Virus record (IMG/VR): IMGVR_UViG_3300018080_000003
Location: 79,728 to 143,727 of that record
Direction: 5' to 3' (one strand)
Source: a virus
DNA: 64,000 nucleotides
Made by a program: the position numbers and the translations under genes
Shown: piece by piece, positions 490-49,000 of the stretch
How the letters are laid out: every line of letters starts with the position of its first letter
How positions within the stretch are numbered: position 1 is the stretch's first letter
The notes under the pieces: generated by a model
Told to the model about the DNA's origin: nothing
Seen by the model: only the letters and a program-made list of their open reading frames with translations
The model's database searches: none

Positions 490-560
490 GGAGGCTGGTT
501 GAGGATTCGAACCTCGAAGAGGGGCGCGCTCTTCAGCTACTCTTCAGCCGGACGCCAGCC
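490..560 (-). ncRNA. tRNA-like RNA (non-canonical cloverleaf)
   Basis: Minus strand reads GGCTGG...CCAGCC acceptor-like stem, GGCT/AGCT D-like arm, GAAGAG-CGCGCCC-CTCTTC arm and GAGG-TTCGAAT-CCTC T arm. No U33 and no variable loop. Confidence 0.55.
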
Positions 561-564
561 AAGT

Positions 565-634
565 GTGTCGAAGGGGCTGTTTCATGTTGGACTACGTGAT
601 GGGATCTCCCCACCCACCATGGCCCCTTCGGCAC
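565..634 (-). ncRNA. Structured RNA at the 5' end of the ncRNA cluster
   Basis: GTGCCGAAGGGGC (634-622) pairs with GCCCCTTCGACAC (577-565) and encloses an inner hairpin. Confidence 0.45.
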
Positions 635-671
635 GTAACTCATGTTACTGCAGGACGCCCTGCCGTTGCAA
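635..671 (-). promoter_or_regulatory. Sigma70-like promoter overlapped by a GTAAC-N4-GTTAC box
   Basis: TTGCAA (671-666), 18 bp, TAACAT (647-642). GTAACtcatGTTAC at 635-648. Confidence 0.55.
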
Positions 672-1151
672 CTCTTCGATGACTTTCTTCGCCATCCGCT
701 TGGTGCGTCGCGAGCCGAGCATGCGCCTGAGCGCTGCTTCTTCCTTTTTGCCAGCAAGCTCGGGTGGCTCGTCGTCGTCGAAGGTGAACCAAGAGCCGAT
801 GTTTCCGTAGACGCTCTGCTCCGCTTTCTGGATGAAGCGGGTCGGGGCGTTCACTTCTGCGCCGACGCGCATGGTGACGACAGTCGCTCTGAGTTCGTTG
901 AAGTCGCAGAACTGGTCGGATCGCTTCGCAAGCTCAGAAGAGATGTCTTTCTTACCTCCCGGTGGCTCGCTGAGACTCTCGCCGAGGCCGAGCCAGTGGC
1001 CCATCTCATGGGCGAGGAACTCCACCAGGTGCCAATTGGGCCAGTCACCCATCCGGTAGTGGGGTTTTTGCATGCGGTGGTACTCGGCGATCTCCGTGAC
1101 GGGCAACCACTCAGCAGCGAGCGCTTCGAGTCTCTCTTGGTTGATCTTCAT
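645..1151 (-). CDS. HExxH-motif protein, putative Zn metallopeptidase
   Basis: LAHEMGHW motif plus a downstream E (NELRA). Confidence 0.55.
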   Translation of the reverse strand: MKINQERLEALAAEWLPVTEIAEYHRMQKPHYRMGDWPNWHLVEFLAHEMGHWLGLGESLSEPPGGKKDISSELAKRSDQFCDFNELRATVVTMRVGAEVNAPTRFIQKAEQSVYGNIGSWFTFDDDEPPELAGKKEEAALRRMLGSRRTKRMAKKVIEELQRQGVLQ

Positions 1152-1159
1152 CTTCGGAC

Positions 1160-1486
1160 CTAGCTCTTTGGTGAGAGCGCCTCCATGTCGTCGAAGACCT
1201 TGAACAGCTCGTGGGCGCTTCTGGTGATCTTCTCTACATGACTCTGTCTCTCGTGGTACTCGGCTTGAACGAGCTTGAAGACGAAGGACCAGAGGTTGTC
1301 GAGGGCATCGGACGGGCTTTGGGACTCTCCTGAGGTCACGAGGAAGGTACCCTCCGGATCTCCCTCGTAGATTTCTCGCACCCGCGCATGCCAGCCTTTC
1401 TCGCCCTCGAATATTTCGAGCTGGAGAGGCTTTGAGAGGGCCAGACTGGCTGCTTTCAAGAGTAGCTCTACGCGTTGGTTGGTCAT
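1160..1486 (-). CDS. Hypothetical protein
   Basis: ORF in a tightly packed - strand run; start moved to ATG 1486. Confidence 0.65.
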   Translation of the reverse strand: MTNQRVELLLKAASLALSKPLQLEIFEGEKGWHARVREIYEGDPEGTFLVTSGESQSPSDALDNLWSFVFKLVQAEYHERQSHVEKITRSAHELFKVFDDMEALSPKS

Positions 1487-1488
1487 GA

Positions 1489-1857
1489 TCAGGGCTCCTC
1501 TCCTTCGGGACCGAAGAACTGTGCGATGGCGCGCGCCCTGCCCCCGGTGAACATGTCGGCGGTCTGCTCGGCGGTGAGACCGAGGCGGATGAGGCATTTG
1601 CCGGTCTTCTTGCTTCGGATCTCGAAGAAGTAGCAGCCGTTGCCCTTCTGCAAGCGCACGACGGCGTCTTGGACGGGCTTGAACCGAACGAGCTTCTCCT
1701 CGTCGTACGAGGGCATGTCGTCGTAGTCGAACTCGCTGAAGCTGGGCGGCTCGGTTCCGAGCCCGATGCGGGTCTGGTTGAGTGCCTGGCGTTGCTCCTT
1801 GGTGGGGAAGCCGGCGAGGGTCTTGTCGAATTTGTCTTCCATGATGTTGGTGCTCAT
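1489..1857 (-). CDS. Hypothetical protein
   Basis: ORF coupled to the upstream gene by an ATGA overlap. Confidence 0.7.
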   Translation of the reverse strand: MSTNIMEDKFDKTLAGFPTKEQRQALNQTRIGLGTEPPSFSEFDYDDMPSYDEEKLVRFKPVQDAVVRLQKGNGCYFFEIRSKKTGKCLIRLGLTAEQTADMFTGGRARAIAQFFGPEGEEP

Positions 1858-2279
1858 TGGTTTTGGATCTCCTCGCGGAGCTTCAGCAGTTGCGCTTGGG
1901 CTACTTCAAGCCTTTCTCGCAGAACTTCGTTGTACTGTTTGGTCTTCTCGATGGCGTACTTCAGCGCTTGGGTGCGCGTGTAGAAGAGCCTGGACACCTC
2001 AGGCTTGTTGAGGCGCCTTTGAATCCACTTCGTGGTCGTACGCCCTGTAGGGCAGTTGTTCTCTGACACCATCCAGTCGTCGATCAGGTCGGCTCCAGCG
2101 CGGCCGGTGTCGTGGGGCGCGTACTCAGCCCACGTGCAGTGCTCGTAGTAGGTGTAGGTATTCTCGAAGACGTGGTACTTGTCGGAGTAGAAGGAGACGT
2201 GAAACAGCGTGAAGCTGTCTCGGTCTTGTGGGTCTTCGAGGATCTTTTTGATCTCTTCTTCTGAGGTCATGCCGTCCAC
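1854..2279 (-). CDS. Hypothetical protein with C-terminal coiled coil
   Basis: ORF in operon; the start could be ATG 2270. Confidence 0.7.
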   Translation of the reverse strand: MDGMTSEEEIKKILEDPQDRDSFTLFHVSFYSDKYHVFENTYTYYEHCTWAEYAPHDTGRAGADLIDDWMVSENNCPTGRTTTKWIQRRLNKPEVSRLFYTRTQALKYAIEKTKQYNEVLRERLEVAQAQLLKLREEIQNQ

Positions 2280-4394: not shown

Positions 4395-4739
4395 TCAGCT
4401 TGAAACCTTCACCCACTGGACGCCCAGCTGTCTGGCTGCTTCGACGTCGCAGTTCTTGTCTCGGTAGATCCCTTCTGGGTCCAGACTGGAGGGCTCAACT
4501 GGGTCTCCCGGGAAGAAGGTCCAGACGCTCAGGTCCTCCTCGTTTTCTTCGTCTTCTGGACGCGGGCGTAGTGCTCATGCCCAGTGCGTGGAAGCCAGTG
4601 GAAACAGCGCTTTCACTTCTTTTAGGCGTTCGCCCCTGTAGTGGAACTTCTCAGACAGTCTCTTAGGTCCCCAGAACCATCGAGCCTGAAAGCTGTTCCA
4701 GCATAGGTAGTTTCCTCCGATCGACAAGATCACCATCAT
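4395..4739 (-). pseudogene. Short ORF (4739-4575) with a protein-like in-frame continuation past TGA to 4395
   Basis: The frame stays open for 59 codons after TGA 4577-4575 (...LSVWTFFPGDPVEPSSLD...) with no RBS-supported start of its own. Confidence 0.35.
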
Positions 4740-4850
4740 CCCTCCTCGGAAGTCCCCGAGCCTTGCGGCTGAGGCCCAGAAGGCAGAACAGCGCCCTTCG
4801 GGGCGCCGCGCTGCGTGGCTCATGCGTTCACGTGCTCTAGCGTTCGCGGC

Positions 4851-5702
4851 TCACTTGACGTCCTCCGCGGTCACGGGGCCCTGGTCCTCGGTCAGGCCGC
4901 GCGGGAACATGCTCCGCCGCGTGGGCGGTTGCATCTCGGCGGCGACCTTGGGTAGGTGCTCCTTGGCGGCTGCGACGCTCCGCGGGTCGGGCTCGTAGTT
5001 GTCCTGGAACTCGAAGCCCAGCTGCCCGTCGCCCAGCTCGTTGAGTAGCTGGACGGCTTGCTCTTCGACCTCCGCCTTGAACTCGGCTTCGAGGGCGGCG
5101 AGTCGCTGCGACCAGCGCACGGCTTTCTTGGCCCGCTCGCGAATCACGTTCGCGTACTGGCTGCAGATGACGTTGCCGATGCGAGCACGCTCCTCGGCGG
5201 CCATCAGATCGGCGACCTTGGCGAGGGCGTTCTCGATGTAGCGGGGTAGGTCTTGGTCGATGCCATCGTCGAGGAAAGCGGCGTTCGCCTCTTCTTCGGA
5301 GATGATCTGACTGGGCTTGTCTGCTTTGAATCGTCGGTCGGCGAAGAAAGTCACCTGACGTCCGTAGCCAAAGCCAGCGCTGGACTCGTCTTTGCGACTG
5401 TCGTTCCACCGACTGCTGAATTCTCCTGAGTACTTCTTGCCGTGCTCCTCTTCGAGCTGACGCTCAACGTCGAGCTTGATGAACCACCAGCCACTGACGT
5501 GGCGGTCTTCTTCGTGCTCCACTCGGAAGTACTCGATCGCTCGGTACTTCTCGTCGGTCATGTACACGTCGATGGCTATCGAAGCATGCCGGTAGTAGAG
5601 CTTGTCCTTCCGGTTGTCCTTCGTGTGGGTGTTCCACCGATCGTCGGTGAAAACGTAGTCTGGCTTGTTGGCCATCTCTTGCTTCTCTTGCTGCTGTTCC
5701 AT
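4851..5702 (-). CDS. Hypothetical protein
   Basis: GGAGGACAAC-ATG at 5702; 283 aa. Confidence 0.8.
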   Translation of the reverse strand: MEQQQEKQEMANKPDYVFTDDRWNTHTKDNRKDKLYYRHASIAIDVYMTDEKYRAIEYFRVEHEEDRHVSGWWFIKLDVERQLEEEHGKKYSGEFSSRWNDSRKDESSAGFGYGRQVTFFADRRFKADKPSQIISEEEANAAFLDDGIDQDLPRYIENALAKVADLMAAEERARIGNVICSQYANVIRERAKKAVRWSQRLAALEAEFKAEVEEQAVQLLNELGDGQLGFEFQDNYEPDPRSVAAAKEHLPKVAAEMQPPTRRSMFPRGLTEDQGPVTAEDVK

Positions 5703-5779
5703 GTTGTCCTCCTTTGGTTCACGAATCGTCACCGAGCACGGTCCCGAAGGACCGAGCCCGAGAACGCGCCGTGAAGCGC

Positions 5780-6085
5780 TCAGAATGCGACCGTGACGAC
5801 TTCGCCCCGCTTCGTGCGGGCCGAGCGGTAGCCGTGGGGCCGCTCGATGCCGAGGGCGACCCGCGCCGTCTGCGCGGCGCCCACGGCCGCGGCGCCCCGG
5901 GTCCCGAACGAAGCCCTGAGGCTGAGGTCCAGCAGCTCGTCGTGGTAGTAGACCAGTCTGGTTTCGACCCAGCGCCCGGGGCTGTCTGGGTCCTCGCTTA
6001 CGGCCAGGAAGTACTTGATCCCAGACGGCTGCGCGATGACGGCGACGTTGCCTGACTTGTCGCTGATGAGTCTGCACTCATTCAT
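5780..6085 (-). CDS. Hypothetical protein
   Basis: AGGAG RBS plus ATG. Confidence 0.7.
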   Translation of the reverse strand: MNECRLISDKSGNVAVIAQPSGIKYFLAVSEDPDSPGRWVETRLVYYHDELLDLSLRASFGTRGAAAVGAAQTARVALGIERPHGYRSARTKRGEVVTVAF

Positions 6086-6094
6086 GGCTGTCTC

Positions 6095-6403
6095 CTACAG
6101 GCTGTAGGCCTGGTACTTGGTTGACGTCCCCCGCATCGCGCCAAAGCTCGATCCGGTCCGCCCGAGACGGGCGGCGATGACGAAGCGCCGGGTGTCGGGG
6201 CAGACCTCGGCTTGCTCGACGATCGTGCCCTCGACCACGTCCTCCTCGGGCTCGAATCCCATGCGGATGGCGTAGTCGCGATCGAACTTGGCGTGCCGCT
6301 CGCACAGCACGTCAAACGATCCGTAGCGGTGCGAGAGCGCTGCTGCCACGCGGACAGCGTTGTCGCTGTACTCGCGCGGCATCCCTTGCTTGTAGTAGTT
6401 CAT
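6095..6403 (-). CDS. Hypothetical protein
   Basis: Starts at the ATG of repeat element copy A. Confidence 0.75.
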   Translation of the reverse strand: MNYYKQGMPREYSDNAVRVAAALSHRYGSFDVLCERHAKFDRDYAIRMGFEPEEDVVEGTIVEQAEVCPDTRRFVIAARLGRTGSSFGAMRGTSTKYQAYSL

Positions 6404-6470
6404 GGTTGTTGTCCTCCTCTCAGCTCGCGTACGCGTGCACGCGAGCTGAGAGAAGGGCAGCAAGCTGCCC
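6401..6470 (-). repeat. Two-hairpin/RBS intergenic element, copy A
   Basis: GGGCAGCTTGCTGCCC, then a stem ending in GAGGAG, then GACAACAACC-ATG. Confidence 0.85.
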
Positions 6471-6477
6471 CTGCCCG

Positions 6478-6522
6478 TCATTCCCAGACGGGCATGTCGT
6501 TTTCATCCCAGTGCCAGTCCAT
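6478..6522 (-). CDS. 14-aa micropeptide MDWHWDENDMPVWE
   Basis: AGGAGGAGACC-ATG RBS. Fills the gap between the upstream stop and repeat copy A. Confidence 0.6.
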   Translation of the reverse strand: MDWHWDENDMPVWE

Positions 6523-6531
6523 GGTCTCCTC

Positions 6532-6921
6532 CTAGAAATTGAAGTCGTAGTACTCGCTGCGCTTGCCGAGCACCACGGTTCCCCCGCGTTGCTTGGTCGG
6601 CGTGCCTACGTGCTTGTAGATGTAGCCCTCGGCGTTCGGCCGCTTGCGGCGCGTGACGACCAGACGCTCACCGTCCGGGTTGCGTTCGTAGCGGTACCGC
6701 TGCGTGCCACTGGTGTGGCCCGCGAAACCTCCCGGACTGAACTGCAGCGCATCGGGCTCTCCCGAGCCATGTCCGTTCAGCAGGATGGCGCGGTCGCGCT
6801 GGAGCACGAGCTTGCGCCCGTTCTCCTTCACCTCGATGACAGTGAATGCCTGGCGATCGCTGTAGCAGTACAGCGTCGCGCCCATGCCGACCTCTGGTCG
6901 GACTTCCGTTTCGGTGTTCAT
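6532..6921 (-). CDS. Hypothetical phage protein
   Basis: Starts at repeat copy B; VGMGATL..YSDRQAFTVIEV; ends YYDFNF. Confidence 0.8.
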   Translation of the reverse strand: MNTETEVRPEVGMGATLYCYSDRQAFTVIEVKENGRKLVLQRDRAILLNGHGSGEPDALQFSPGGFAGHTSGTQRYRYERNPDGERLVVTRRKRPNAEGYIYKHVGTPTKQRGGTVVLGKRSEYYDFNF

Positions 6922-6986
6922 GTTGTTGTCCTCCTCTCTAGGCACATGTCGTGCATGTGCCCAGAGACGAGGGCAGCAAGCTGCCC
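6917..6986 (-). repeat. Two-hairpin/RBS element, copy B (70-bp perfect inverted match to 9800-9869)
   Basis: Base-by-base comparison. Confidence 0.9.
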
Positions 6987-6992
6987 CGCGGC

Positions 6993-7727
6993 TCAGTGAG
7001 CCGCAATCCAAACCGACTTGGCCCCCGACGCGTTGCCGCGGCAGAGCCCGCAGGTGGCGCACGTAGCGCGACCCGAGACCGCCGGACAAGACACCTCACC
7101 CTTGGCCGGAGCCGCATCGCGGTCCTCGTCAGCCCGGAAGTAGCGCCAGCCCGCGGCCCGCGCCTCGGTCGCATCCGCCGGACTGTCGCAGCTGGCCATG
7201 AGCCATGCCGCAAGCTCCGGGCGCGAACGCCACGAGTGAGTGTAGCCGGTCCAAGAACCCGCCGCGTCGGCCAGCTCCGCTACCAGCTCCACTGGCAGCG
7301 CAGCCGGGTCACCGTACGCCCCAAAGCGAAGCGCCTTACCGCGCAGACGCGACAGCGCCCGAACCTTGTTGGTCCCGCGGCTGTAGGTCGACGCCCACAC
7401 GCTACGTGGCGCCTGAAAGGCGCGCTTGGCGACGTAGCACATGGTGAGACCGTTCTCCCGGGCCACCGAAGGGCGCCGAGGACAGTCGCCGCAGATCGCA
7501 GCGTCCTCGCCCGTTTTGATCGCCTCATGCGGCGCGACGTCGGCAGGAAGGATCCACAGCTGGACCATGTGGCCCGTCTTAGTATTCTTGCTGTCGGCGT
7601 CGAGACCCGTCAGGACCGCGACGATCGGCTCGCCGTTGAGCCGCGACGGTCCGCGCCAGATCACCTCAGACCGAGGCGTCCGCTTTCGGATCACGTCGCG
7701 CTTGGCGCGAATGTTGATCAATTGCAT
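6993..7727 (-). CDS. Cys-rich conserved phage protein (DUF7227/gp88-like, possibly Fe-S or Zn binding)
   Basis: CGDC, CYV, RFGAYGDP, WTGYTHSW, LMASCDS and CATCGLC motifs. Confidence 0.65.
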   Translation of the reverse strand: MQLINIRAKRDVIRKRTPRSEVIWRGPSRLNGEPIVAVLTGLDADSKNTKTGHMVQLWILPADVAPHEAIKTGEDAAICGDCPRRPSVARENGLTMCYVAKRAFQAPRSVWASTYSRGTNKVRALSRLRGKALRFGAYGDPAALPVELVAELADAAGSWTGYTHSWRSRPELAAWLMASCDSPADATEARAAGWRYFRADEDRDAAPAKGEVSCPAVSGRATCATCGLCRGNASGAKSVWIAAH

Positions 7728-7793
7728 GTTGTTGTCCTCCACTCTGCGCGCATGCGTCACATGCACGCAGAGGGGAGAGCAGCAAAGCTGCCC
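7725..7793 (-). repeat. Two-hairpin/RBS element, copy C
   Basis: GGGCAGCTTTGCTGCTC, stem, GGAGGACAACAAC-ATG. Confidence 0.85.
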
Positions 7794-7800
7794 AGACGGC

Positions 7801-8235
7801 TCACTGCTCGCGCAGCACCGTCATCGCATCCTCGTCGAGGCCCGCGAGGAATTCGTCGACCTTGTCCACGGTCGCGACGCACGCCTCGTAGATGCGCTCT
7901 GCGCGTCGCGAGTCCGTGTCGTACCCAAACTCCGCACAGAAGTCCTCGAAAGACTCGCAGTAGCGAGCCGCGTCCGCGTCGGACATCAGGCTGTGAAGCA
8001 CGTCCGCCGCTTTGGGTTCGTGCTGAAACGCCGGACCCATGTGGAAGCTGGTGGTCAGCGTCCGCATGGCAGGCTTGCTGAAGTGAGGGCCCGGTCCGGG
8101 CCAGCTCAGCGTGACCGTCCAGCTCGTAGACCCAGCCGGCATGTCGCTCGGGGTGACGTCCACGCAGCCCATGACGGACTGCGTGCGGATCCCAAGCTTT
8201 TTGCAGAGCTTGTCTGCGTCAGTGAGATTGTTCAT
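7801..8235 (-). CDS. Hypothetical phage protein
   Basis: Starts at repeat copy D; SFEDFCAEFGYDTDSRRA motif. Confidence 0.8.
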   Translation of the reverse strand: MNNLTDADKLCKKLGIRTQSVMGCVDVTPSDMPAGSTSWTVTLSWPGPGPHFSKPAMRTLTTSFHMGPAFQHEPKAADVLHSLMSDADAARYCESFEDFCAEFGYDTDSRRAERIYEACVATVDKVDEFLAGLDEDAMTVLREQ

Positions 8236-8303
8236 GATTGTTGTCCTCCTGCGGAGCCCCGTTGCGCACGGAGCCCCGCAGGAGAGCAGCAAACGCTACT
8301 CTC
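8233..8303 (-). repeat. Two-hairpin/RBS element, copy D
   Basis: GAGAGTAGC-GTTT-GCTGCTCTC, CCTGCGG...CCGCAGG stem, GGAGGACAACAATC-ATG. Confidence 0.8.
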
Positions 8304-8312
8304 GCGTCGCGG

Positions 8313-8570
8313 TCAGGCCGCGTCCTCGTCGGCGACCATCAGCACCACGTGGTGCCGCGACCCGCCGTCGGTGGTCCCGCAGCAGTCGCACGAGCGCCAC
8401 GAGAACTCCTCGTCGCGCTCCGCGTCGCCGTTGCAGAGCCATCCTTCCTGCGAGAGCGCATCCAGCCCCTCGGCTACCTCGCGCTCGCGCTCGTCGGTGA
8501 TGTCATCCACGTAGCCGTGCGCAATCGTGTGCACACAGTCCACGCAAACCTCTAGGTCGTGAGTTTGCAT
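8313..8570 (-). CDS. Small CxxC Zn-binding protein, first gene of the leftward arm
   Basis: CVDC and FSWRSCDCCG motifs; AGGAGG RBS. Confidence 0.75.
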   Translation of the reverse strand: MQTHDLEVCVDCVHTIAHGYVDDITDEREREVAEGLDALSQEGWLCNGDAERDEEFSWRSCDCCGTTDGGSRHHVVLMVADEDAA

Positions 8571-8862
8571 ATCTGTCCTCCTGTCGCCCACTAGGGCAAC
8601 GCTGACCCCCGTTGCGCTCTGCAGCGCCCCGGGCCGTCGTTCCACCCCCTGCCCCACCGCTGCACCCCGATGCCCCTGGCCTGTGAAGCGTGACGCTAAT
8701 AGTAATTAGCGTCACGTATAACATGGTACGTTACGGTTACTGAAATATCGTCACGCACCACACAACAAGTAAAACGGGGGTCAGCGGTGGGGCAGGGGGT
8801 GACCGGCAGGGTCGAGGCACAACGGGGTGCCGCGATGGTACAGCCGGTGAGAGGACATACAG
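8571..8862. promoter_or_regulatory. Divergent control region with a central 28-bp palindrome and 20-bp flanking inverted repeats
   Basis: Genes diverge here. Palindrome at 8689-8716; inverted repeats 8643-8662/8782-8801 and 8600-8613/8773-8786; core is AT-richer than its surroundings. Confidence 0.8.
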
Positions 8863-9069
8863 ATGACCAAGCTACTTACTAAGAGCATCGAGCGATGGCG
8901 CGCTACGGCGAGTCAGCGTCGCTTGCACGGCGGTGCGACCGTCACGCGGTTCTTCGTCTGCGAAGCGGACGGGGAGCGCCACGGCGAATTCGTCGGTTAT
9001 GGCCGAACGCCTGGCGACCGTAAGAGCTATGCCATGGCTGCCGCCCGCAAAGCGTGGGGGCTGTCATGA
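8863..9069 (+). CDS. Hypothetical protein, first gene of the rightward arm
   Basis: GAGGA RBS plus ATG. Confidence 0.7.
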   Translation: MTKLLTKSIERWRATASQRRLHGGATVTRFFVCEADGERHGEFVGYGRTPGDRKSYAMAAARKAWGLS

Positions 9070-9269
9070 TGCGGCTCTGCTACTACCCAGCGAACGTGGC
9101 TTGGGGGTTCGTCTTTGGCGACACCCCGATCCGCATGGGCGACGGGCCGCTGCTCTACAGCGGGAAGAACGCCAAGGCGAGGGCCAAGGCGGACGCGGCG
9201 CGGCAGGGCCTGACGGTCGTGCTCGGACGCGTGGTTCCCGCGGGGCCTAACCGCGACGCGGCTCGCTGA
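9066..9269 (+). CDS. Hypothetical protein
   Basis: ATGA overlap. Confidence 0.65.
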   Translation: MMRLCYYPANVAWGFVFGDTPIRMGDGPLLYSGKNAKARAKADAARQGLTVVLGRVVPAGPNRDAAR

Positions 9270-9276
9270 GCCGTTC

Positions 9277-9345
9277 GGGCAGCTTGCTGCCCTGCTTTCA
9301 GCTCGCATGCCAGACATGCGGGCTGAAAGGAGGACAACAACCATG
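9277..9345 (+). repeat. Two-hairpin/RBS element, copy E
   Basis: GGGCAGCTTGCTGCCC, CTTTCAGC...GCTGAAAG stem, GAGGACAACAACC-ATG. Confidence 0.85.
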
Positions 9346-9792
9346 AAAACTATCGAGCTGAAACAAGACACGATTCTCGTGTCGGCAACGACGCCCCTCG
9401 GAAGCCCGATCCTCACTGAGGACGACGGCATGGGCCCGCTCTGGGCCTGGAGCGACAACCCCTACGGTGGCGTCTCTGCCATCGTTCGGGCGCAGTCCTA
9501 CGAGAAGGCTCTGGAGATCGTTTACGATCTCCTGCCGACGATCCCGGAAGACGAGGTGCACGAGGCCTATGGCTTCGACTGCGAGGGCGAGTTCCAAGCG
9601 GCCATCTCGCGGGGCGAGCAGCCGGAGCTGATCGAAGGCTACCACGACCAAGCCAACAGGAGCGGCACGGGAATTGTCTCCGTCGACCACTGCGAGCGCA
9701 TGTGGAAGCTGGACCACGAAAACGCAAAGTATGCGGTCCGGCTGAAGGTGCGTCACTTGGACGACGTTCTTCTCGACGACTTGTTCGATTGA
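9343..9792 (+). CDS. Hypothetical acidic protein
   Basis: Starts at repeat copy E. Confidence 0.8.
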   Translation: MKTIELKQDTILVSATTPLGSPILTEDDGMGPLWAWSDNPYGGVSAIVRAQSYEKALEIVYDLLPTIPEDEVHEAYGFDCEGEFQAAISRGEQPELIEGYHDQANRSGTGIVSVDHCERMWKLDHENAKYAVRLKVRHLDDVLLDDLFD

Positions 9793-9799
9793 GATGTCA

Positions 9800-9869
9800 G
9801 GGCAGCTTGCTGCCCTCGTCTCTGGGCACATGCACGACATGTGCCTAGAGAGGAGGACAACAACATGAA
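9800..9869 (+). repeat. Two-hairpin/RBS element, copy F
   Basis: Identical to copy B in inverted orientation. Confidence 0.9.
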
Positions 9870-10140
9870 GTATGCGACAAAACGCTTGCTCGATTCCGTC
9901 TGGACCGTGGCATTCACGGTCACGAAGGATGGCAAGGCAACGATCCACGGCTACAGCCGTGACTGCCAGCTGGGTTACGACCTGGAGGGCGATCTTCCGG
10001 TGTGCCGGCTCATCGAGGGTCCAGGCCGTGAGGTAAAGGCGCTCGACGTCAAGCTCGCGACCGAAGCGGGCTCGCGTTCGACCTTGTATCAGGTGTCGAA
10101 CCCTCGGCACGTATTCAGCTACGGCGAGGTACAGGTATGA
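9865..10140 (+). CDS. Hypothetical protein
   Basis: Starts at repeat copy F. Confidence 0.75.
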   Translation: MKYATKRLLDSVWTVAFTVTKDGKATIHGYSRDCQLGYDLEGDLPVCRLIEGPGREVKALDVKLATEAGSRSTLYQVSNPRHVFSYGEVQV

Positions 10141-10310
10141 CGACCACCAGGCGTGCACGGCGCTTCGCGAACCAATACGGGTTCGGCTCCGATCTTCGAA
10201 AGCTCAAGCGGCCGGCTCGGCGGCGCGAGCGCCGCAACATCAACCAGGCGATCCGACGCGGCGACTACGATGCGGCGATGCGCCCCCTGACAGAGAGGTA
10301 CGTGGCATGA
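10137..10310 (+). CDS. Small Arg-rich protein (57 aa)
   Basis: Manual translation; ATGA overlaps at both ends. Confidence 0.65.
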   Translation: MTTTRRARRFANQYGFGSDLRKLKRPARRRERRNINQAIRRGDYDAAMRPLTERYVA

Positions 10311-10477
10311 ACAAGAACACGGAGAAAGCCGCCAGGTTTCATATCCGCTGCTGCCTGCGACGTGGGCGCAGCAAAAGCCAGGCCTACAACCAGCTGACGC
10401 GAGCGTTCGGCTATGGTCCGGACATCGGTGCACTCATCGACGATGAGTACGAGAAAGCGAAAGGGGACGTGGCATGA
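10307..10477 (+). CDS. Small hypothetical protein (56 aa)
   Basis: Manual translation; ATGA overlaps at both ends. Confidence 0.65.
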   Translation: MNKNTEKAARFHIRCCLRRGRSKSQAYNQLTRAFGYGPDIGALIDDEYEKAKGDVA

Positions 10478-10713
10478 ATCTGAACGGCAACATCAAGCAT
10501 GGCCGCTTCGGCGGCGACGTGTTGGCGGCTACGCGCTGGGAGAAGAGGGAAGGCATGCGAAAGAGTCGTGTCGTCCTGATCCAGATCGCCAGCGAGTGGT
10601 GTACAGCCATCCACTGCGAGGGGGATTATGAGTGGCTGTACGGCAAGTACTTCGTGACCCCGGAAGCGGCGTGGGAGAGCTTCACGGAGCGGGCGCGAGA
10701 CTTGCTCTCGTGA
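10474..10713 (+). CDS. Hypothetical protein
   Basis: ATGA-coupled ORF. Confidence 0.7.
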   Translation: MNLNGNIKHGRFGGDVLAATRWEKREGMRKSRVVLIQIASEWCTAIHCEGDYEWLYGKYFVTPEAAWESFTERARDLLS

Positions 10714-10719
10714 GGCGAT

Positions 10720-10788
10720 AAGACAGCAGGGATGCTGTCTTCCTTTCGGTGCCTGGCATGGGTCAGGCTTCGAAAGGAGGACAACATG
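10720..10788 (+). repeat. Two-hairpin/RBS element, divergent copy G
   Basis: AGACAGCA-GGGA-TGCTGTCT, TCCTTTCG...CGAAAGGA stem, GGACAAC-ATG. Confidence 0.7.
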
Positions 10789-11070
10789 AACACGTTCAAC
10801 ATCAAGACGGACGAGCACGGCGATCAGACCGTCGAGATCCGAAACGAGCAGGGCGACGTGGTGGCTGAGATCATCGCGGTGCCCGTCAGCAAAGATGGCA
10901 TGAGCATCGACGTTCGGCCGATGGTTCACGCCAGGGTGCAGAACATCGTTTTCGGTGTCGATGAGATGGATCGCATGAGCGACCGCTTCGTGTACAACAC
11001 CAAGAACCACAACGGCAACATCAACGATGTTTGCCTCCCCTTCGTGTGCGTGGAGGTCAACCCGTCATGA
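10786..11070 (+). CDS. Hypothetical protein
   Basis: Starts at repeat copy G. Confidence 0.75.
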   Translation: MNTFNIKTDEHGDQTVEIRNEQGDVVAEIIAVPVSKDGMSIDVRPMVHARVQNIVFGVDEMDRMSDRFVYNTKNHNGNINDVCLPFVCVEVNPS

Positions 11071-11447
11071 GACAGCTACCGGCAAACCTTCAGGGAAAGC
11101 TCATCGAGAGCTACTACGACGGGGGCGAGACCCCGCTCGACTACAACCACCCCGACTTCGACGCGACGCGCGTCGCGACCGCCATCGTGCGGCACGCCTA
11201 CGCGATGGGCATCGAGGAGGGGCGAGACCGCGCCGAAGGTCGCTACCCGATGGTTAACGGGAGGATGGGTGCGCGAGTAAAGCATCCTGTGGGGGGAGAA
11301 GAGGTACACGCACAAGACGCGATCGAAGACCTTGATGGCATCCTTTGTGTGATCCTCAGCCATCTGGTCGGTCGTATGCGGTACACGGAGATGGTCATCG
11401 CGCGGGCTCACCAGGAGCTAGAGCGGGCGGTCGTCAAAGAAGCCTGA
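11067..11447 (+). CDS. Hypothetical protein
   Basis: ATGA-coupled; GGAGG RBS. Confidence 0.7.
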   Translation: MRQLPANLQGKLIESYYDGGETPLDYNHPDFDATRVATAIVRHAYAMGIEEGRDRAEGRYPMVNGRMGARVKHPVGGEEVHAQDAIEDLDGILCVILSHLVGRMRYTEMVIARAHQELERAVVKEA

Positions 11448-11546
11448 GAGGGAAGCGCCTTGCTGGCGCCCCTCGGGGCGCACGAAAGTTCAATCCAATT
11501 GAACGTTCGTGCGGCCCGAGGTGCACGAGCACCCAAGGAGACAAGC

Positions 11547-11935
<389 letters not shown>

Positions 11936-11939
<4 letters not shown>

Positions 11940-12151
11940 ACGGCTCTCCCATCTCTGTGGGCAGCAAGGTGCACGTCGGCGAGCCCTACTCGGACGAGTA
12001 CGACGAGGGCACCGTCGTCGAGCGTGAAGGCGACTGTCTCCTGGTCTTCTGGTCGCGCTGCGGCGAGGAGTACTGGGAGGCAGAGGACGTGCTGAACCAC
12101 GGTCACCCTGGCTGCTGGCCGGAGGTGCCGATCGCTGAGCGCGCGAGCTGA
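11936..12151 (+). CDS. Small acidic, possibly SH3-like protein
   Basis: ISVGSKVHV...GTVV...LLVFW pattern. Confidence 0.65.
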
Positions 12152-12279
12152 GCTGAGTTGAGCGTGCAGACTTGAGCGGCCCTCAGGCCGCCGCCGCGCC
12201 CCTTGGGGCGCCGTGTCCACTCTCCGTCCTCCGGGACGGGGCGTGGCCACGGTGCATCAGGCATCGACAGGAGGACGAC

Positions 12280-12630
12280 ATGGAACGACATCAGATCAAC
12301 AACGAGGACCACGACCGCCAGGCGCTCGAAGCCTGTGCGGCATCCCACGAGCAGTTTCTCCATGAGCTGGGCGCCTTCATGGGCATGCTCAAGGAAGATG
12401 CCGAGGCCAAGGACCTCGACCACACCGACGTCTTTCGGCTCATCGACGAGGCGGCGAAGATCCTGGGTCCGAACACCCGGCTCGATCAGCACGTCCAGTG
12501 CACGCAGGAGCTGATCCGAAACCTCGCGGAGGCCGGGCGCTCGCACCGCATCGCCTGGGTTCGCCGCGGGCTGCAGACCGCTTACAACGGCGCCAAGCGG
12601 CACCGCGACTACCTGAGAGGCGAGCTTTGA
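12280..12630 (+). CDS. Hypothetical protein
   Basis: AGGAGG RBS after a structured spacer. Confidence 0.75.
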   Translation: MERHQINNEDHDRQALEACAASHEQFLHELGAFMGMLKEDAEAKDLDHTDVFRLIDEAAKILGPNTRLDQHVQCTQELIRNLAEAGRSHRIAWVRRGLQTAYNGAKRHRDYLRGEL

Positions 12631-12714
12631 GCTGACCCTTCCTCGCTAGGGCCTGAGGAGCTATCTTCTCGGGCCCCTGCGAGGGCGCGTGAGCCCAACA
12701 GAGGAGAACCAAAG

Positions 12715-12948
12715 ATGATCAGAAGGAAGGCAAGCACGGTGCAGCAGTCACAGCGCGAGCGCGAGAAGGCGCGGGCGTATTGGAACACGCTGATGCCTCA
12801 GGACAAGGAAGCGCTCGCGGACGCGATGGTGTTCGGCGAGAACCTGGTCGAGGCCGGGTTCTTCGAGCGGCTTCCGAGCGGCATCTTCCAGGATGAGCTG
12901 GGCGAGCTGATGGTTCAGCGAGAGATCGACTTCATCCCCCGCGCATGA
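12715..12948 (+). CDS. Hypothetical protein
   Basis: GAGGAG RBS. Confidence 0.7.
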   Translation: MIRRKASTVQQSQREREKARAYWNTLMPQDKEALADAMVFGENLVEAGFFERLPSGIFQDELGELMVQREIDFIPRA

Positions 12949-12971
12949 GCGTGGGTCGAAAGGGGACAGAC

Positions 12972-13355
12972 ATGAACGACGACAAGGCAGGAAAGATCGC
13001 GCTGCTCGCGGCGGAGAACGCGGCGGAAGGCTTCATCTACGGCATGGTGCAACATGCAGCGGAGGCCATCAACAAGCTGGCGGAGGATCACTCAGTGAGA
13101 CTCACCGACGCGAAGATCCGACTCAGTTACGGCCGCCGTCGCGGCATGAACGTGAGCTACGGCTGGCGCGCGGAGATCGAAAAGGGCGCCTTCGACGTGG
13201 ATGAGGGCGCCGTCTACGCGTTGCGCGACATCGCGGAGAACGGTCGGAGCTGGGAGTCGGACGGCGCCGTGAGGGCGGTGGAAACGATGATCTCCTGGAT
13301 GGGAGAGGTCTTCCGCGCTGGATCTCGGCGCCCGTCGTGGGAGGACTCAAAGTGA
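12972..13355 (+). CDS. Hypothetical protein
   Basis: AGGGG RBS plus ATG. Confidence 0.7.
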   Translation: MNDDKAGKIALLAAENAAEGFIYGMVQHAAEAINKLAEDHSVRLTDAKIRLSYGRRRGMNVSYGWRAEIEKGAFDVDEGAVYALRDIAENGRSWESDGAVRAVETMISWMGEVFRAGSRRPSWEDSK

Positions 13356-13615
13356 GCTACAAGAGCCTCAGCGACGCGCCCTGGTGCCAGGCCCTGAACG
13401 ACTGGATCGAATCCCAGAACGCTCGGGTGCTCTGGCGCGAGCTGAAGACGGACCGGGAGGTCAGCTGCTACGAGGCGAAGGGTAAGATCTTCGTGGTCGT
13501 CGCCTACGCCCACGGCTGGGAGCTGCTCATTCCTGCGTCCGCAGACAACGACGTCAAGAAGACGCTGGAGGCCGCGGAGGCCTACCTCAACGCACACCAC
13601 GAAGGAGAAAACTGA
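13352..13615 (+). CDS. Hypothetical protein
   Basis: GTGA overlap; GGAGG RBS. Confidence 0.7.
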   Translation: MSYKSLSDAPWCQALNDWIESQNARVLWRELKTDREVSCYEAKGKIFVVVAYAHGWELLIPASADNDVKKTLEAAEAYLNAHHEGEN

Positions 13616-19573: not shown

Positions 19574-19629
19574 GGACGAAACGCTCTGCTGCAGAGCGTC
19601 TGAGGGTATGCACCCTCACTGATGAGTCC
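19574..19629 (+). ncRNA. Hammerhead ribozyme, type II; predicted cut after C19600
   Basis: GGAC-GAAA-[CGCTCTG/CAGAGCG stem III]-TC cleavage site (GUC triplet)-[TGAGGGT/ACCCTCA stem I]-CTGATGA-GTCC. The catalytic core is complete. Confidence 0.93.
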
Positions 19630-19828: not shown

Positions 19829-19900
19829 GCATCTGTCGCTCAGAGGATGAGCAGCGGCCTTCTAAGCCGACCCACGCAGGTTCGAATCCTGCCAGATGCG
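19829..19900 (+). tRNA. tRNA-Arg(TCT), CCA not encoded
   Basis: GCATCTG/CAGATGC acceptor, GCTC/GAGC D stem, CT-TCT-AA loop, GCAGG-TTCGAAT-CCTGC T arm. Confidence 0.85.
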
Positions 19901-19920
19901 CTCAAGAAAGGGGACCTCAA

Positions 19921-32731: not shown

Positions 32732-35700
32732 ATGGCAGATGAAGGAAGCTGGGGCTTCAAGGGTTTCGGTGCGCGAGCGCTGGAGCTTCCCTCGGGGCAG
32801 GACGTCGAAGTTTCACCCGCTGATCGAGGGCGCCTGCGTTACAACGCGACGACCAGTCAGCTGGAGTTCTCCGCCAACGGAGGCGCCTACGCCGCACTCG
32901 GCATGGGCGGTGCCAGCCCCTGGCTCAGTGCCGCAGGCGTGACTCGGCTCCAGAACATCACAGACGATGTAGCCATTGGTGCGACCACCATGGCCGGCTC
33001 CGAGAAACTTCGCATCATCGGCGATGTGCGTGTTGAGTCCCAGGTTCAAGTGACTGAAATCACTTCAGTGCCCGGCTCTGCCCTCGATCTCGAAATCTCA
33101 GCCGACACCGGTAACGTCAACATGACGCTCACCGGTGGGTCTGGCTTCCGTGCTCAGAATGGCGTCGGTGACCCTCTCATCCGAGCGGTGCCTACGGGTC
33201 AAATCCTTCTCGGCGATCCTGCGATTCCGCTCTCCGGCGTCGACATCAGCGCTGACATCACGCTCGTGGAAGGCGACGAGCTGAACTACCGCGCCTCCGG
33301 CTCCACCGACAACCTGATCAGAGCTGAAGCGACCACCAACACCTTCAACGTGGGGCAGCTCGCGCCCCTCTTGGAAGTCGATCAGGTCAACGTCGGCACT
33401 CAGGTGCTCAATGCAGCGGCCTCTCCCAACGCGTTCCAGGTCGTCCAAGGCGCCAACAACTACCTGAATATCGACACCGCTGGCGGGGTCATTCAGATCG
33501 GTTCCACCGGCGGCACAGGCTCCACCCTAACCTTCGACGGGACAACCGGGTCCACCACCCTGGACTCTGAGCTGAACCAGGCCGCATCCTTCGTCCTTAC
33601 CGACGGCACCGACGACGCCATCGTCTTCGACGCCACCACCGGTGGTAAAAACCTCTCTCTCGGTGGTCCAAACATCGAGGTCGTCGTTCCCGGAAACAAT
33701 AACATTCGCATCGACGGGGGCTCTCTCTGCCTCGTTGAAAGAGCCACAGATCCGGCGGCCGTCGCCAACGAGGGCAAGGTCTACACGAAGGATGTTCTGG
33801 GCGTCACCGAGCTGTTCTACCGAGACTCAGCTGGCAACGTGCGGCAACTCACACCACCCGCAACAGGCGGCGCTCCGGGTGGCGCGAACACCAACGTTCA
33901 GTTCAACGACGCCGGGAGCTTCAACGGAAACGCCAACTTCACCTTCGATGGCACCAACGTCGACATCGCGACACAGCTCTCGGTGCCTGTCGTCCAAGGG
34001 ACTGGCGCGACTTTGGCTGTCGGAAACGGTGCAAGCGATCTGACGCTTCAAGGTGTCCCCGGCTCTGGAACGCTCTTCAGCTTGAGCGGAACCAACCCAT
34101 ACCTGACCATCGACGACAACACCAACGACATCGTCGTCGGCAACACCACCGACAACCCTGACCTGGAATTCTCCGGGAGCGGCAACGTCGCTCTCACCGG
34201 CGGAAGTCAGATCCTCTTCACCGAGCGCGTGGGTGACCCAACCCCCGCGGCCAACGTCGGTCAGGTCTACACCAAGGACGTCGCCGGTCAGACCGAGCTG
34301 TTCTACATCGACGCCGCTGGCAACGTCCGGCAGCTCACCCCGCCCGCAACCGGAGCGCCTGGTGGCGTCAACACCAACGTCCAGTACAACAACGCTGGTT
34401 CCTTCGACGGCAACAACAACTTCACGTTCGACGGGACTGCTGTCACGATCGCTACGCGTGTTGAGGTGCCCACGGTTCAAGGTACAGCTGGCAGCCTCGA
34501 ACTCGGCAACGGTGTGAGCAACATCACGATGACCGCTACACCGGCGTCGGCTACGGCCATCACGATCGGAACCTCGAACACCTACATCGCTATCGACGAC
34601 GCCGCAGGCAGCATGGTTCTGGGCAACGCACTGTCGAACCCCAGTCTGGAGATCGCAGGCTCGGGCGACATCGCCATCACTGGCGGGACACAGTTGGTGA
34701 TCACCGAGCGCGTCGGCGACCCTGGCGCTGCCGCCAACACCGGCAAGCTCTACACCAAGGACACCGCTGGCACGACCGAGCTATTCTACCAGGACAGCGC
34801 CGGTAACGTTCGGCAGCTCACGCCTGGTGGCGGTGGCGGAACGCCTGGTGGCGCCAACACTCAGGTCCAGTTCAACAACGCAGGCTCCTTCGACGGGAGT
34901 GCCAACTTCACGTTCGATGGAACCACCATCACGCTCGGGCCCGTCTCGGGAGTCTCGACCATCGAGACCGACATCAACATCGCGGACAACACCAACAACG
35001 CGTTCCTCGTCCGCGAAAACATCAACAACTACATCGAAATCGACACCTTCACCGCTGCCGAATCGATGTCATTCGGCAACGGTGGCGCTAACACCCCCTC
35101 GATGCTCTTCACGATCCGTGCAGCCAACAACAGTTGGCGGATCACTGAAGCCGGTACGTCGCGAGACTACATCAACATCAACGCAGGCGGCTCGAACAAC
35201 ATCGAGCTGGGAAACATCACCGGCGCTCCGAGCGTCGACATCGTTGGTGACGGTGGCCTGTACCTCCGTGGCGACAACCTCAACGATGGTTCGTTCCTCG
35301 ACATCCGAGAGCGCACCAGCGGACCTCCCCCCACGGCAGCTCAGCGTGGTCAACTCTTCACACTCGACGTCTCGACGGTGACCGAGCTGTTCTACCAAGA
35401 CAACACAGGAGCCAGCACTCAGCTCACGTCCGGAGGTGGCGCAGTTGTCGGCTCCACAATCATCATCAACGACAACCAGACCCAGGCCTTCAGCGTTCGT
35501 GAGGCCGCGAACAGCTACATCGACGTCAACACCACGAACGGGGCAGAGGCGATCACTTGGGGCAACGGGAATACCGATCCGTCCTTCTTCTTTGCAGGGG
35601 CGCCTGGACCCATCGACATCGACGTCTCTCCGGCCACTCCAGGTGCCAACGTCGACATGTGGACGGCCAACGCCGGAAGTCTGACCATCGGTAACACTGC

Positions 35701-46060: not shown

Positions 46061-49000
46061 CTAGAGGATGGCACCCCAGAGATGAACGGGGGTGGGAAGG
46101 TCGAAAGCGTTGCCGTTGCGACGGTAGTTCTCCCGGAAGATATCACCGACGAACTCTTGCTGGCGAGCAGAGGCAAACTCCTCGTTGAAGTCGTCGAACA
46201 TGCTTTCAGCGAACGTCGGCTCGACCACGGTAGAGCGCTCTCGGATCGACTCGTACGCTCGGATGATGCCTTCAGGGCGCTCCAGGCTCATGCCTTGGCG
46301 CCGAAGCATGCGACGAAGCTCGTCTTCCTGGGCAGGGGCGCAAGGCACCTTGTAGCTCTTCATGATCTCAACCAGGAGCGACGTGAACTCAGGACGCTGG
46401 ATGTACTGCTTGCCCTTCTGGCGCCCCTGGATGATCTCCCAAAGCCGCCGCGCGATCCGGCGCGCAACACACTCAGAGTGGGCCTGATGCCGGAGCGCGA
46501 AGTCTTCCTTGAAAGCCATCGTGTGCACAATGGTCTGGCTCTCGATGTTGAACAGCTCACGGAACGCCGACAGAGGAGCCTTGTCACACAGGGCGACGAG
46601 TCTCAGGGCTCTGTCCTCGGCGGCTTCTTTGCCAAACAACTTTCGCACCTCGTTCAAGTAGAACCGCTGACGCTTGCCGCCGGCTCCCACCGTCTGAAGC
46701 TCCCCCTTCTTCCGCTTCTTGATCAAAGCCATCGCGTCATACCCAGGCTGGTTGGCCACCCTTGAGACGAACACCTCCAGCTCGTCAGAGACGCGCTGCG
46801 CAGCAGCCTCGAAGCTCCGCGTGTTGACCTGACCTCGGCTTCTCGCCTTCTCCTCTTGCAGCTGATCTAGCGAACCATCGATGCTGCAAAGCGCGTCGAT
46901 GAACTTCGCGACGTCTACACGAGAGAACCGATCGAACTGACGCTTCATGCTGCGGACGGGCTGATTGGTCGCAGCAGCCAGCCAGTCCAGCATCTCCTCG
47001 CGCTCGTCAAACGGAAGATCGTAGACCGGGTCACTGTCTGCATACCAAGCCGGAGCCAGATCGCTCATGGGCTGCGGCGTCTGCTGCTTCTTCTCCCAGC
47101 CCTCTGGCGTGCCTGGTGTCGTGCGGTACTGGCCGCCACGGACGCGGAACCAAGCGATGATCTCCTCCGGAAGGTGCTCCCGAAACACCTCACGCGGCTC
47201 AGGCGCCCTGAAGCTACCTCGAAGCTTCGTCTCCGGCCACGGCGCCTCAGGCGCAACGAAGCGTCCCTCTCGGCCCGAAAGAACGTCTTGGACCTGCGCC
47301 GTCACCTTCAGCGACTCTTCGATCCACTTCTCCAGCGCGAGTACGCGGGTGAACTTCCCTGCATCAGAAGCCCACTCCATCCAAAGCTCAGACAGACCTC
47401 GGCACACACCATCATCTGGTCCGCAGTCTCCGACCTGCCCGGGGCTCATCACTGGCATCGCGGGGGAAAGCTTTCCGTCCGTGCCAAGCCACCAGTTGAG
47501 CCCGCTCTCCTTTCCGGAGAAGACCCAGTTGGCCAAGTCCAGACCAGCGGGGCCGTAGAGCCTCCCGTCGTCTGCTCTTGCACGCTGACGCTGGCGCGCT
47601 TCTTCGATCTTCGGGTCAAGCACGATCGGTTCATCATCCGGCTCGTCAAAGCGACCCACCAGCTTGCCGAAGTCCTCGAAGCTTAGATCCTCATCATCCT
47701 CATCTTCATCGAAGTCCTCGTCGAACTCACTTTGGTTCGGGATGAACTCCATCTTGGAGACCAAGCTCTGCTTCTTGCGGCCTCCGCTCTTGATGAGCTG
47801 CTGCCGGTTGCCCTTCTCGCCCCAATGGACCCGGTAGATGATGCAGAGCCGTCGAATCGACTCGGCGTCCAGACTCAAGCAGGTTTGAATCTTCGTATCC
47901 TCGCCGCTCGTCAGACGCTTGCCTCGACGCTTCTCGATGTTCTGGATGAAAGCTTCTTCGCTCGAAGGCCCTGGCGCGCTGCCCAGATCCTCGAACTCCA
48001 CCGCCTCGACCGGCTCAACTTCTCGGGTTTGAGGTCGCGCTGGGCGACGTTCCTCGGCTTGAGGTCGCGCCGGGCGAAGACGGGGGCGCGGCGCCTCGGG
48101 GACACCCATGGGCTCGATGTCCTCAGAAGAGATCGTCGGCACCTCAGGCTCAGGCGGAAGCTCACGGAACGAACGCCCAGGTACTGTCGCCCTGGGGGCG
48201 ACGCGGGCCCCCGATGGGGCCTCGGGCTGGGGCCGGAGCCGGAACGGCTCCGCGATCATCTTCTCCTCGTCGAACTCCTCGATGTAGAGGCCCGTCGTCG
48301 CAACACTCGTGTGGCCGAGCATCTTCTGAACCCGGTTCATGGGCGTTCCGCCTTCGATGGCGATGCGCGCGAACAAGCCACGCAAACCATGAGGGTGCGC
48401 TCGCTGGAAGTCCGGGCTTCCCGGCTCGATACCAGCCTTTTCCGCTCGACGGCGAAGCATCATCGCGATCCCCGGGCGCGTGAGACCTGCCTCGCCCGTG
48501 CCCGCGTTCGCGCCCCAGTAGGCAACGGCCGGGATGAGAGGCGCATCGTCGCGGCTCAAGAGCGACGCCGCGCGGCTCTTGCCCTGGTAACGGAGCTGGT
48601 GCTCTGCCATTTTCTGGATGCGGACATCCATCTCCACCAGGGCACGCTGCGCAGCAGGAGGCACGATCACCTTGCGCTTCTTGTTCCGCTTGCCAAGCAG
48701 CGTCACCATCGGCCGGTCGTAGTCACGACGCTTCAGGCGATGGACCTCCACCGAACGCGCACCCGTCTGCGCCATGAAGATAAGCAACGCACGATCCCGG
48801 ACGTCCTTGAACGTCGGCTCTCGCCCTCGGATGGGCGGGGGCACAGGACGGCCCCAGAATGCAGCCTCTGCCGCTGCCAAGGCACCGCCGCCGTGCGTTC
48901 GTGTGAACGTCGTAGCCAACAGCCGCAGGAAGAACGTCAAGGGCGTCTGCTTGGCCTTGCGCGCCTGCTGTCTGAAGCTCGGTGCCTCACTGAGCACCTG

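Follow-up and report, generated by a model that had tools for sequence, protein, structure and literature searches.

A repeated two-hairpin element between early genes on two divergent arms

We analyzed a 64,000-nt stretch of viral DNA (the window), which is the final 64 kb of the 143,727-bp IMG/VR virus record IMGVR_UViG_3300018080_000003, and describe here an element of about 70 nt that is repeated between the small early genes of this phage. The record has direct terminal repeats and is rated complete, and the G+C content of the phage is about 60%. The early small genes diverge from a hub at 8574-8862, those to its left lying on the minus strand and those to its right on the plus strand. 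Seven copies of the element lie within 6401-10788, each in the sense of its flanking genes. A covariance model built from the copies matches all seven places that an earlier reading of the DNA without database searches (the sequence-only reading) had named, with scores of 50-84 bits, and a scan of the whole 143.7-kb genome with this model shows no strong match beyond them. The block GGAGGACAAC occurs eight times in the window, all within 5703-10785, versus 0.11 occurrences expected, and is absent from the rest of the 144-kb genome. The folds of the seven copies have z-scores of -5.4 to -7.0 relative to dinucleotide shuffles. The ten proteins flanked by the elements have no match in a Pfam search. 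A salt-in halophile was considered as host and excluded because the proteome of the window phage is not acidic (median isoelectric point, 6.6).

The element consists of two hairpins followed by a ribosome-binding site. Hairpin 1 begins 6-9 nt past the upstream stop codon (a few nt in the sequence-only reading) and comprises 6-8 bp, mostly GGGCAG-CUUG-CUGCCC, with two variants that retain AGC...GCU. Helix 2 abuts hairpin 1 without a linker in every copy and is 16-18 bp long in the window (14-18 bp family-wide, mostly 16 bp). Its sequence is free, and its loop measures 3-7 nt, with no motif common to the apical loops. The 3' base of helix 2 is the GGAGG of GGAGGACAAC(AAC)AUG, that is, GGAGG followed by ACAAC(AAC) and AUG, and the 8-nt spacer between GGAGG and AUG contains only A and C, with no G, and is free of structure. 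The copy at 6917-6986 recurs inverted, with 100% identity, at 9800-9869, and the two form a perfect inverted repeat in the window. Three spacers at 11448, 12152, and 12631, previously described as looser structures, are strongly structured too; in a relative, they show 97-99% identity, compared to 77-95% for the genes that flank them.

The element family is found in the window phage and in three related metagenomic phages, with 25 copies in the four lineages. The three further lineages were reached in a large protein database via the 244-aa, 68-aa, and 144-aa proteins. L066/L090, assembled from a microbial-mat metagenome, measures 8.7 kb and has 10 copies, and the proteins of its shared genes show 68-81% identity; the 82.9-kb contig L096 has five strong copies, and its shared genes are mostly 75-96% identical (range, 44-96%); L101 is a 4.1-kb contig with three copies. 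L081 was rejected as a family member, having at best a single doubtful copy. The more distant contigs L061, L067, and L092 carry sequence-unrelated pairs of a short and a long hairpin at the same kind of place, one of which hides GGAGG inside a 21-bp stem. A different repeated hairpin element, which starts with TGACGGCGCGTTTTCGCGG, precedes early genes in L067 (1329-1390, 2565-2630, and 3040-3100) and in L061 (9921-9980), and the 244-aa protein of a relative carrying this type of element is 79% identical. Leader-element families appear to have been exchanged between related phages. L061 also encodes a TnpB-like (Cas12f1-like_TNB) gene at 497-2179 (-), at the end of its early arm.

Other searches returned no further relatives of the element. 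By DNA similarity, nothing relevant was found among plasmids or in a phage collection, in which only a 111-nt stretch matched, to Xylella phage Salvo, and exact-pattern scans of viral contigs gave 0 matches. The 22 matches of an exact-pattern scan of metagenomes were dismissed, since almost all of them arise by chance within coding sequence, at Glu-Glu-Asp-Asn codons. The element is absent from 56 IMG/VR relatives of the 244-aa gene, the helicase relatives include no close kin, and no close kin were found in public phage, plasmid, and IMG/VR collections. No Rfam family matches at the gathering threshold, and the sub-threshold matches are microRNA-like hairpins only.

The 25-copy alignment, which was fitted to the model, was used to evaluate covariation. 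Both partners vary in 12 of the 16 pairs of helix 2, and pairing holds in 96.5% of the cells, versus 43-54% when the partners are slid, in agreement with the variable sequence and conserved pairing described for the window copies. The observed covariation score is reached by none of 500 shuffles. RNAalifold independently predicts the same fold, with helix 2 prolonged over GAGG at the cost of two basal pairs of hairpin 1, so that CCUC pairs with the GAGG of the ribosome-binding site in the consensus fold. Because a DNA palindrome would yield equal covariation, we tested strand asymmetry. G.U pairs occupy 36 cells in 10 columns, whereas A.C, which is what a G.U wobble of the opposite strand would look like, occupies 2 cells in 1 column. 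The sense folds are more stable than the antisense folds in all 22 copies tested, by 6.3 kcal/mol on average. In addition, stem changes between orthologous or same-type copies all retain pairing, including one C-G to U-A double change and changes from G.U to G-C, and the same-type copy of copy 5 in L101 shows three compensatory pair changes. The covariation, the excess of G.U over A.C, and the greater sense-strand stability of all tested copies demonstrate that the element is a structure of the sense-strand RNA, consistent with the RNA-level device proposed earlier. It is a well-supported structured RNA family that is missing from Rfam, from a phage lineage known only from metagenomes.

Table 1. 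Copies of the element, related spacers, and other features of the window
Feature	Position	Strand	Score or fold	Context and remarks
Copy 1	6401..6472	-	Covariance model 77.2 bits; fold -44.9 kcal/mol, z -7.0	After 14-aa micro-ORF, before 102-aa gene (6095-6403); GGAGG at 6413-6417
Copy 2	6919..6988	-	Covariance-model match	After 244-aa gene, before 129-aa gene (6532-6921); 100% identical to copy 6; inversion junction versus L096
Copy 3	7725..7795	-	Covariance-model match	After 144-aa gene, before 244-aa gene (6993-7727)
Copy 4	8233..8303	-	Covariance model 84.1 bits	After 86-aa gene, before 144-aa gene (7801-8235); hairpin 1 variant GAGAGUAGC...GCUGCUCUC
Copy 5	9275..9345	+	Covariance-model match	After 67-aa gene, before 149-aa gene (9343-9792)
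Copy 6	9798..9867	+	Covariance-model match	After 149-aa gene, before 91-57-56-79-aa block (9865-10713)
Copy 7 (most diverged)	10718..10788	+	Covariance model 50.5 bits at 10722-10788; z -6.4	Before 94-aa gene (10786-11070); hairpin 1 is AAGACAGC...GCUGUCUU; orthologs in L096 and L101
Degenerate relative	5700..5785	-	12.4 bits	Before 283-aa gene; same GGAGGACAAC-AUG, other upstream hairpin
Structured spacer	11448..11547	+		Short, long, and third hairpin, then free ribosome-binding site; 99% identical in L096
Structured multi-hairpin spacer	12152..12279	+		
Structured spacer	12631..12714	+		
Divergent hub	8574..8862	none		Start of both early arms; conserved in related phages
14-aa micro-open reading frame (micro-ORF), MDWHWDENDMPVWE	6478-6522	-		Between 129-aa gene and copy 1; own ribosome-binding site
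Weak Hammerhead_II match	19577-19625	+	25.3 bits (gathering score 37)	Upstream of tRNA-Arg(TCT)
tRNA-Arg(TCT)	19829-19901			Downstream of weak Hammerhead_II match
Predicted tRNA-Ile	37355-37434	+		Unusual anticodon AAT
Gene for 1222-aa protein	46061-49729	-		Tyrosine-recombinase (integrase) domain at residues 309-491

Gene-order breakpoints at the elements

The sequence-only reading had suggested that the repeats make each gene a swappable cassette and had named gene-content breakpoints in relatives as a comparison that could refute it. The gene-content and gene-order breakpoints in the three related phages coincide with the elements. The order of the shared genes differs in all four lineages, and elements lie between most of the rearranged genes. 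All breakpoints that were located to the nucleotide fall at the edge of an element. The blastn blocks shared by L096 and the window end at window position 7730 in the 3' part of copy 3, at 10716 at the 5' edge of copy 7, and at 9272 and 9343, which are both edges of copy 5; the copy 5 site is occupied by a different two-hairpin element in L096 and L101. Positions 11050-11123 of L096 match 9796-9869 and 6986-6913 of the window alike. This shared match to the 70-bp copies shows that the outer parts of the arms have been exchanged relative to the hub, an inversion of the hub whose junction is the perfect inverted repeat. L096 has a new 130-aa gene between two elements; in the window, one arm carries the 244-aa gene and the opposite arm the 91-57-56-79-aa block. 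In L090, the 244-aa and 68-aa genes are on the same arm; in L101, the 144-aa gene shares an arm with the 68-aa gene, and the 149-aa gene is found beside the hub, on the opposite arm.

Relative to L096, copy 3 is chimeric: hairpin 1 travels with the upstream gene, and helix 2 with the ribosome-binding site travels with the downstream gene, so that at this place L096 has the same hairpin 1, a different helix 2, and a different next gene. The L096 ortholog of copy 4 differs by 1 nt, in the spacer. The helix 2 ahead of the 102-aa gene is of another type in L096 than in the window, which indicates gene conversion among element copies. Repeat-induced misassembly of L096 was excluded, as its copies have fewer than 31 identical bases in common. 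The phage is present in samples such as ERZ27256796, JGI 3300017963, and SRR27364936. The gene order of the window recurs in independent long assemblies, and no inversion isomers of the window phage were found, all long contigs among the nine with the 129-aa gene showing the window order; the Logan contigs simply end at the 70-bp copies.

As judged from these gene orders, a role of the elements as sites of gene exchange, loss, gain, and hub inversion is their best-supported functional consequence. Most early genes of either arm are bordered by this one module, which would therefore serve as homology for exchange and inversion. The 70 nt that would standardize the gene leaders are also the place of gene exchange, and, because the arms diverge, recombination at the elements could invert the control hub and leave expression intact.

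A DNA-level explanation of the breakpoints would make the element a structure-specific recombination site, like integron attC or REP, whose hairpins form in single-stranded sense-strand DNA (the lagging-strand template if the hub is a replication start) and are cut by a recombinase. Besides the breakpoints themselves, the retention of pairing while sequence varies and the tyrosine-recombinase domain of the 1222-aa protein would fit this explanation, and G.T pairs stabilize DNA hairpins too. However, the alignment shows neither attC-type inverse core sites at the ends nor extrahelical bases, no Y1 transposase was found, and both the CUUG tetraloop and the strict link with stop codon, ribosome-binding site, and AUG point to RNA. 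Moreover, the perfect 70-bp identity is enough for ordinary homologous recombination. We consider such a site the least probable of the explanations weighed here. That the elements are dedicated cassette-exchange sites, forming an integron-like array on two arms in which extruded sense-strand hairpins are cut and rejoined by a phage recombinase, is also highly improbable; if true, early genes would be movable between arms and between phages with their expression kept.

The hub contains an AT-rich palindrome at 8689-8716 with G+C repeats beside it. L096 and L090 retain both features, and L067 retains the palindrome itself as well. This region is likely a divergent early control region or an origin. 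Three copies of CAACGGGG lie near the hub at 8257 (-), 8607 (-), and 8820 (+), each in the sense of its own arm; as a hub motif it was dropped because it is not significant (4 matches versus 1.9 expected).

The micro-ORF next to copy 1 is kept in L096 and L101 with two to three amino-acid changes each and has a GTG start in L101; its 3' half also forms a hairpin. Farther along the window, repeats of about 450-480 nt occur at 33725-35428 and 59937-61630, inside a 1107-aa ORF (+) and a 965-aa ORF (-). The two sets are mutually 70-91% complementary, indicating that two large proteins encoded on opposite strands have repeated modules in common.

Possible action of the element on early messages

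We favor, with a probability of roughly 45%, the reading that the element is an intercistronic module cut by host RNase III and in addition a recombination linker; by the cut, the upstream message would gain a cap and the downstream ribosome-binding site would become free. Within the transcripts of the two divergent early units, hairpin 1 and helix 2 of this RNA module could stack coaxially to about 22-25 bp. Host RNase III would then cut the long helix 2 and separate the cistrons; hairpin 1 would stay behind as a 3' cap shielding the upstream message, and the ribosome-binding site of the downstream message would be set free. Each gene could in this way be expressed from a standard leader, independent of its context. 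The regular length of helix 2, its free sequence, its motif-free loops, and its constant abutment to hairpin 1 fit an enzyme that reads the length of double-stranded RNA and is blind to its sequence. Neither an RNase III nor a double-stranded RNA-binding domain encoded by the phage was found in the genome, and any cleavage would therefore be performed by the host enzyme. In the early precursor RNA of T7, RNase III cuts at five sites, and the translation of some messages is improved (PMC4858673).

All copies lie between a stop codon and the next ATG, without a promoter or terminator signal between the genes. There are no promoter-like (sigma-70-like) sites in 4500-13500, no U-tract terminator is associated with the elements, and no phage sigma factor was found in the genome. 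A search for a T7-type polymerase gave no match, but the control genomes gave no match either. These results bear on the possibility that the element is a transcription attenuator or terminator, in which hairpin 1 or helix 2 halts or pauses RNA polymerase as in the promoter-early stem-loops (PeSLs) of T4. Stable G+C hairpins directly after stop codons would suit such a function, and PeSL stem-loops terminate transcription (PMC2839356). However, neither hairpin is followed by a U-run, no promoter was found from which the downstream genes could restart, and no sigma factor of the phage was found, making this explanation very unlikely.

The ribosome-binding site had been described as buried in hairpin 2. 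The GGAGG does lie in helix 2, but at its fraying base, and opening it costs 4-9.5 kcal/mol, compared to 0.3-5.8 kcal/mol for other early genes; the occlusion is only moderate, and a firmly locked ribosome-binding site is rejected on the basis of the computed opening cost. A translational timer or switch, in which an anti-Shine-Dalgarno/Shine-Dalgarno helix silences the early cistrons until a phage or host factor opens it, is accordingly unlikely. The factor would be a helicase or an RNA-binding protein recognizing the conserved sequence of hairpin 1, and two features are consistent with a switch: CCUC pairs with GAGG in the consensus fold, and the lowest pairs of hairpin 1 compete with those at the base of helix 2. 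Besides the moderate occlusion, the absence of an identified RNA-binding protein among the neighboring genes, all of which lack a Pfam match, and the absence of a motif common to the helix 2 loops argue against it.

The low opening cost is in line with an unprocessed insulator and stabilizer, which is possible though doubtful. Here, the uncut hairpins would fold on themselves, keep the upstream coding sequence off the ribosome-binding site, stop exonucleases, and provide all cistrons with one strong leader (GGAGG, 8-nt A/C spacer, and AUG). The position of the ribosome-binding site at the fraying base, the spacer without G, and the free ribosome-binding site in some analogous spacers favor this explanation, but it leaves the length of helix 2 (about -30 kcal/mol), its regularity, and its constant abutment to hairpin 1 unexplained.

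Several points weigh against processing by RNase III and against an exclusive role of the element as linker. Good RNase III substrates typically have roughly two helical turns, and helix 2 alone, at 14-18 bp, is shorter; the length of 22-25 bp is reached only if helix 2 is stacked on hairpin 1, which is an assumption. With the occlusion being moderate, release of the ribosome-binding site by cleavage may not be needed. The RNase III sites of T7 are irregular with an internal loop, whereas the hairpins of the element are near-perfect. Host assignment failed; the genome matches of the 244-aa protein, at 38-45% identity, belong to Mycobacterium, Synechococcus, and Acidobacteriota. Finally, two single genes have moved at overlapping stop/start junctions without an element.

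Cleavage at the element, together with its use as a recombination linker, would join two topics that are usually apart, the post-transcriptional punctuation of early operons and the mechanics of mosaic genome evolution. It provides a testable model for how phages keep newly gained genes of unknown function expressible, and for the design of operons the elements offer compact, naturally occurring insulators of cistrons.

Comparison with known systems

The T4-type PeSL cassettes are also repeated intergenic modules, of about 70-100 nt, which stretch from the upstream stop codon as far as the ribosome-binding site and ATG, include a stem-loop, and border small early genes of unknown function (PMC2839356, PMC4122927). 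Insertions, deletions, and replacements in relatives fall at the PeSLs, a feature found here too. However, PeSLs have a strong sigma-70 promoter and a terminator stem-loop, whereas no promoter was found in the element, which instead has two abutting hairpins, the second one free in sequence and covarying. The elements also differ from PeSLs in lying on two divergent arms, and recombination between the arms therefore inverts the hub.

The SAS/ESAS of Cluster K mycobacteriophages resemble the element in having a conserved asymmetric sequence at the position of the ribosome-binding site of a subset of non-structural genes (PMC3203893, PMC12699233), with the orientation of the genes throughout and an inverted repeat upstream. 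Their function is still unknown. The ESAS arms, 17-bp imperfect inverted repeats, follow a consensus within a subcluster and show no compensatory changes according to the authors (PMC3203893, PMC12699233), who for this reason favor a DNA-binding protein. In contrast, the arms of the element have no consensus and covary, with both sides changed in 12 of 16 pairs. The 13-bp SAS GGGATAGGAGCCC is not present, and the conserved block here is GGAGGACAAC(AAC).

Like the element, the early RNase III sites of T7 are hairpins between the cistrons of an early multi-gene unit of a phage (PMC4858673). The proposed consequences are also alike, namely that the messages become separate, that the upstream RNA keeps a 3' hairpin, and that translation downstream improves. 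The T7 sites are cut once, are not repeats of each other, and are not known as recombination linkers, whereas for the element we infer the cleavage. REP/BIME and attC are likewise structured repeats between genes, and attC sites, which bound mobile cassettes, vary in sequence without losing their structure. Unlike REP/BIME, the element has no GTAG head and is not accompanied by a RAYT/Y1 transposase (no PF01797 match in the genome). Unlike attC, it has no inverse core sites, its ends being GGGCAGC and GGAGGACAAC, and its helix 2 is near-perfect without extrahelical bases; the sole tyrosine-recombinase domain, that of the 1222-aa protein, lies about 36 kb from the element array. The element further differs from both REP/BIME and attC in being tied to translation signals. 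Taken together, we class the element as a repeated regulatory linker of phage early genes, and it is closest to the T4 PeSLs and the mycobacteriophage SAS/ESAS, without the defining features of either.

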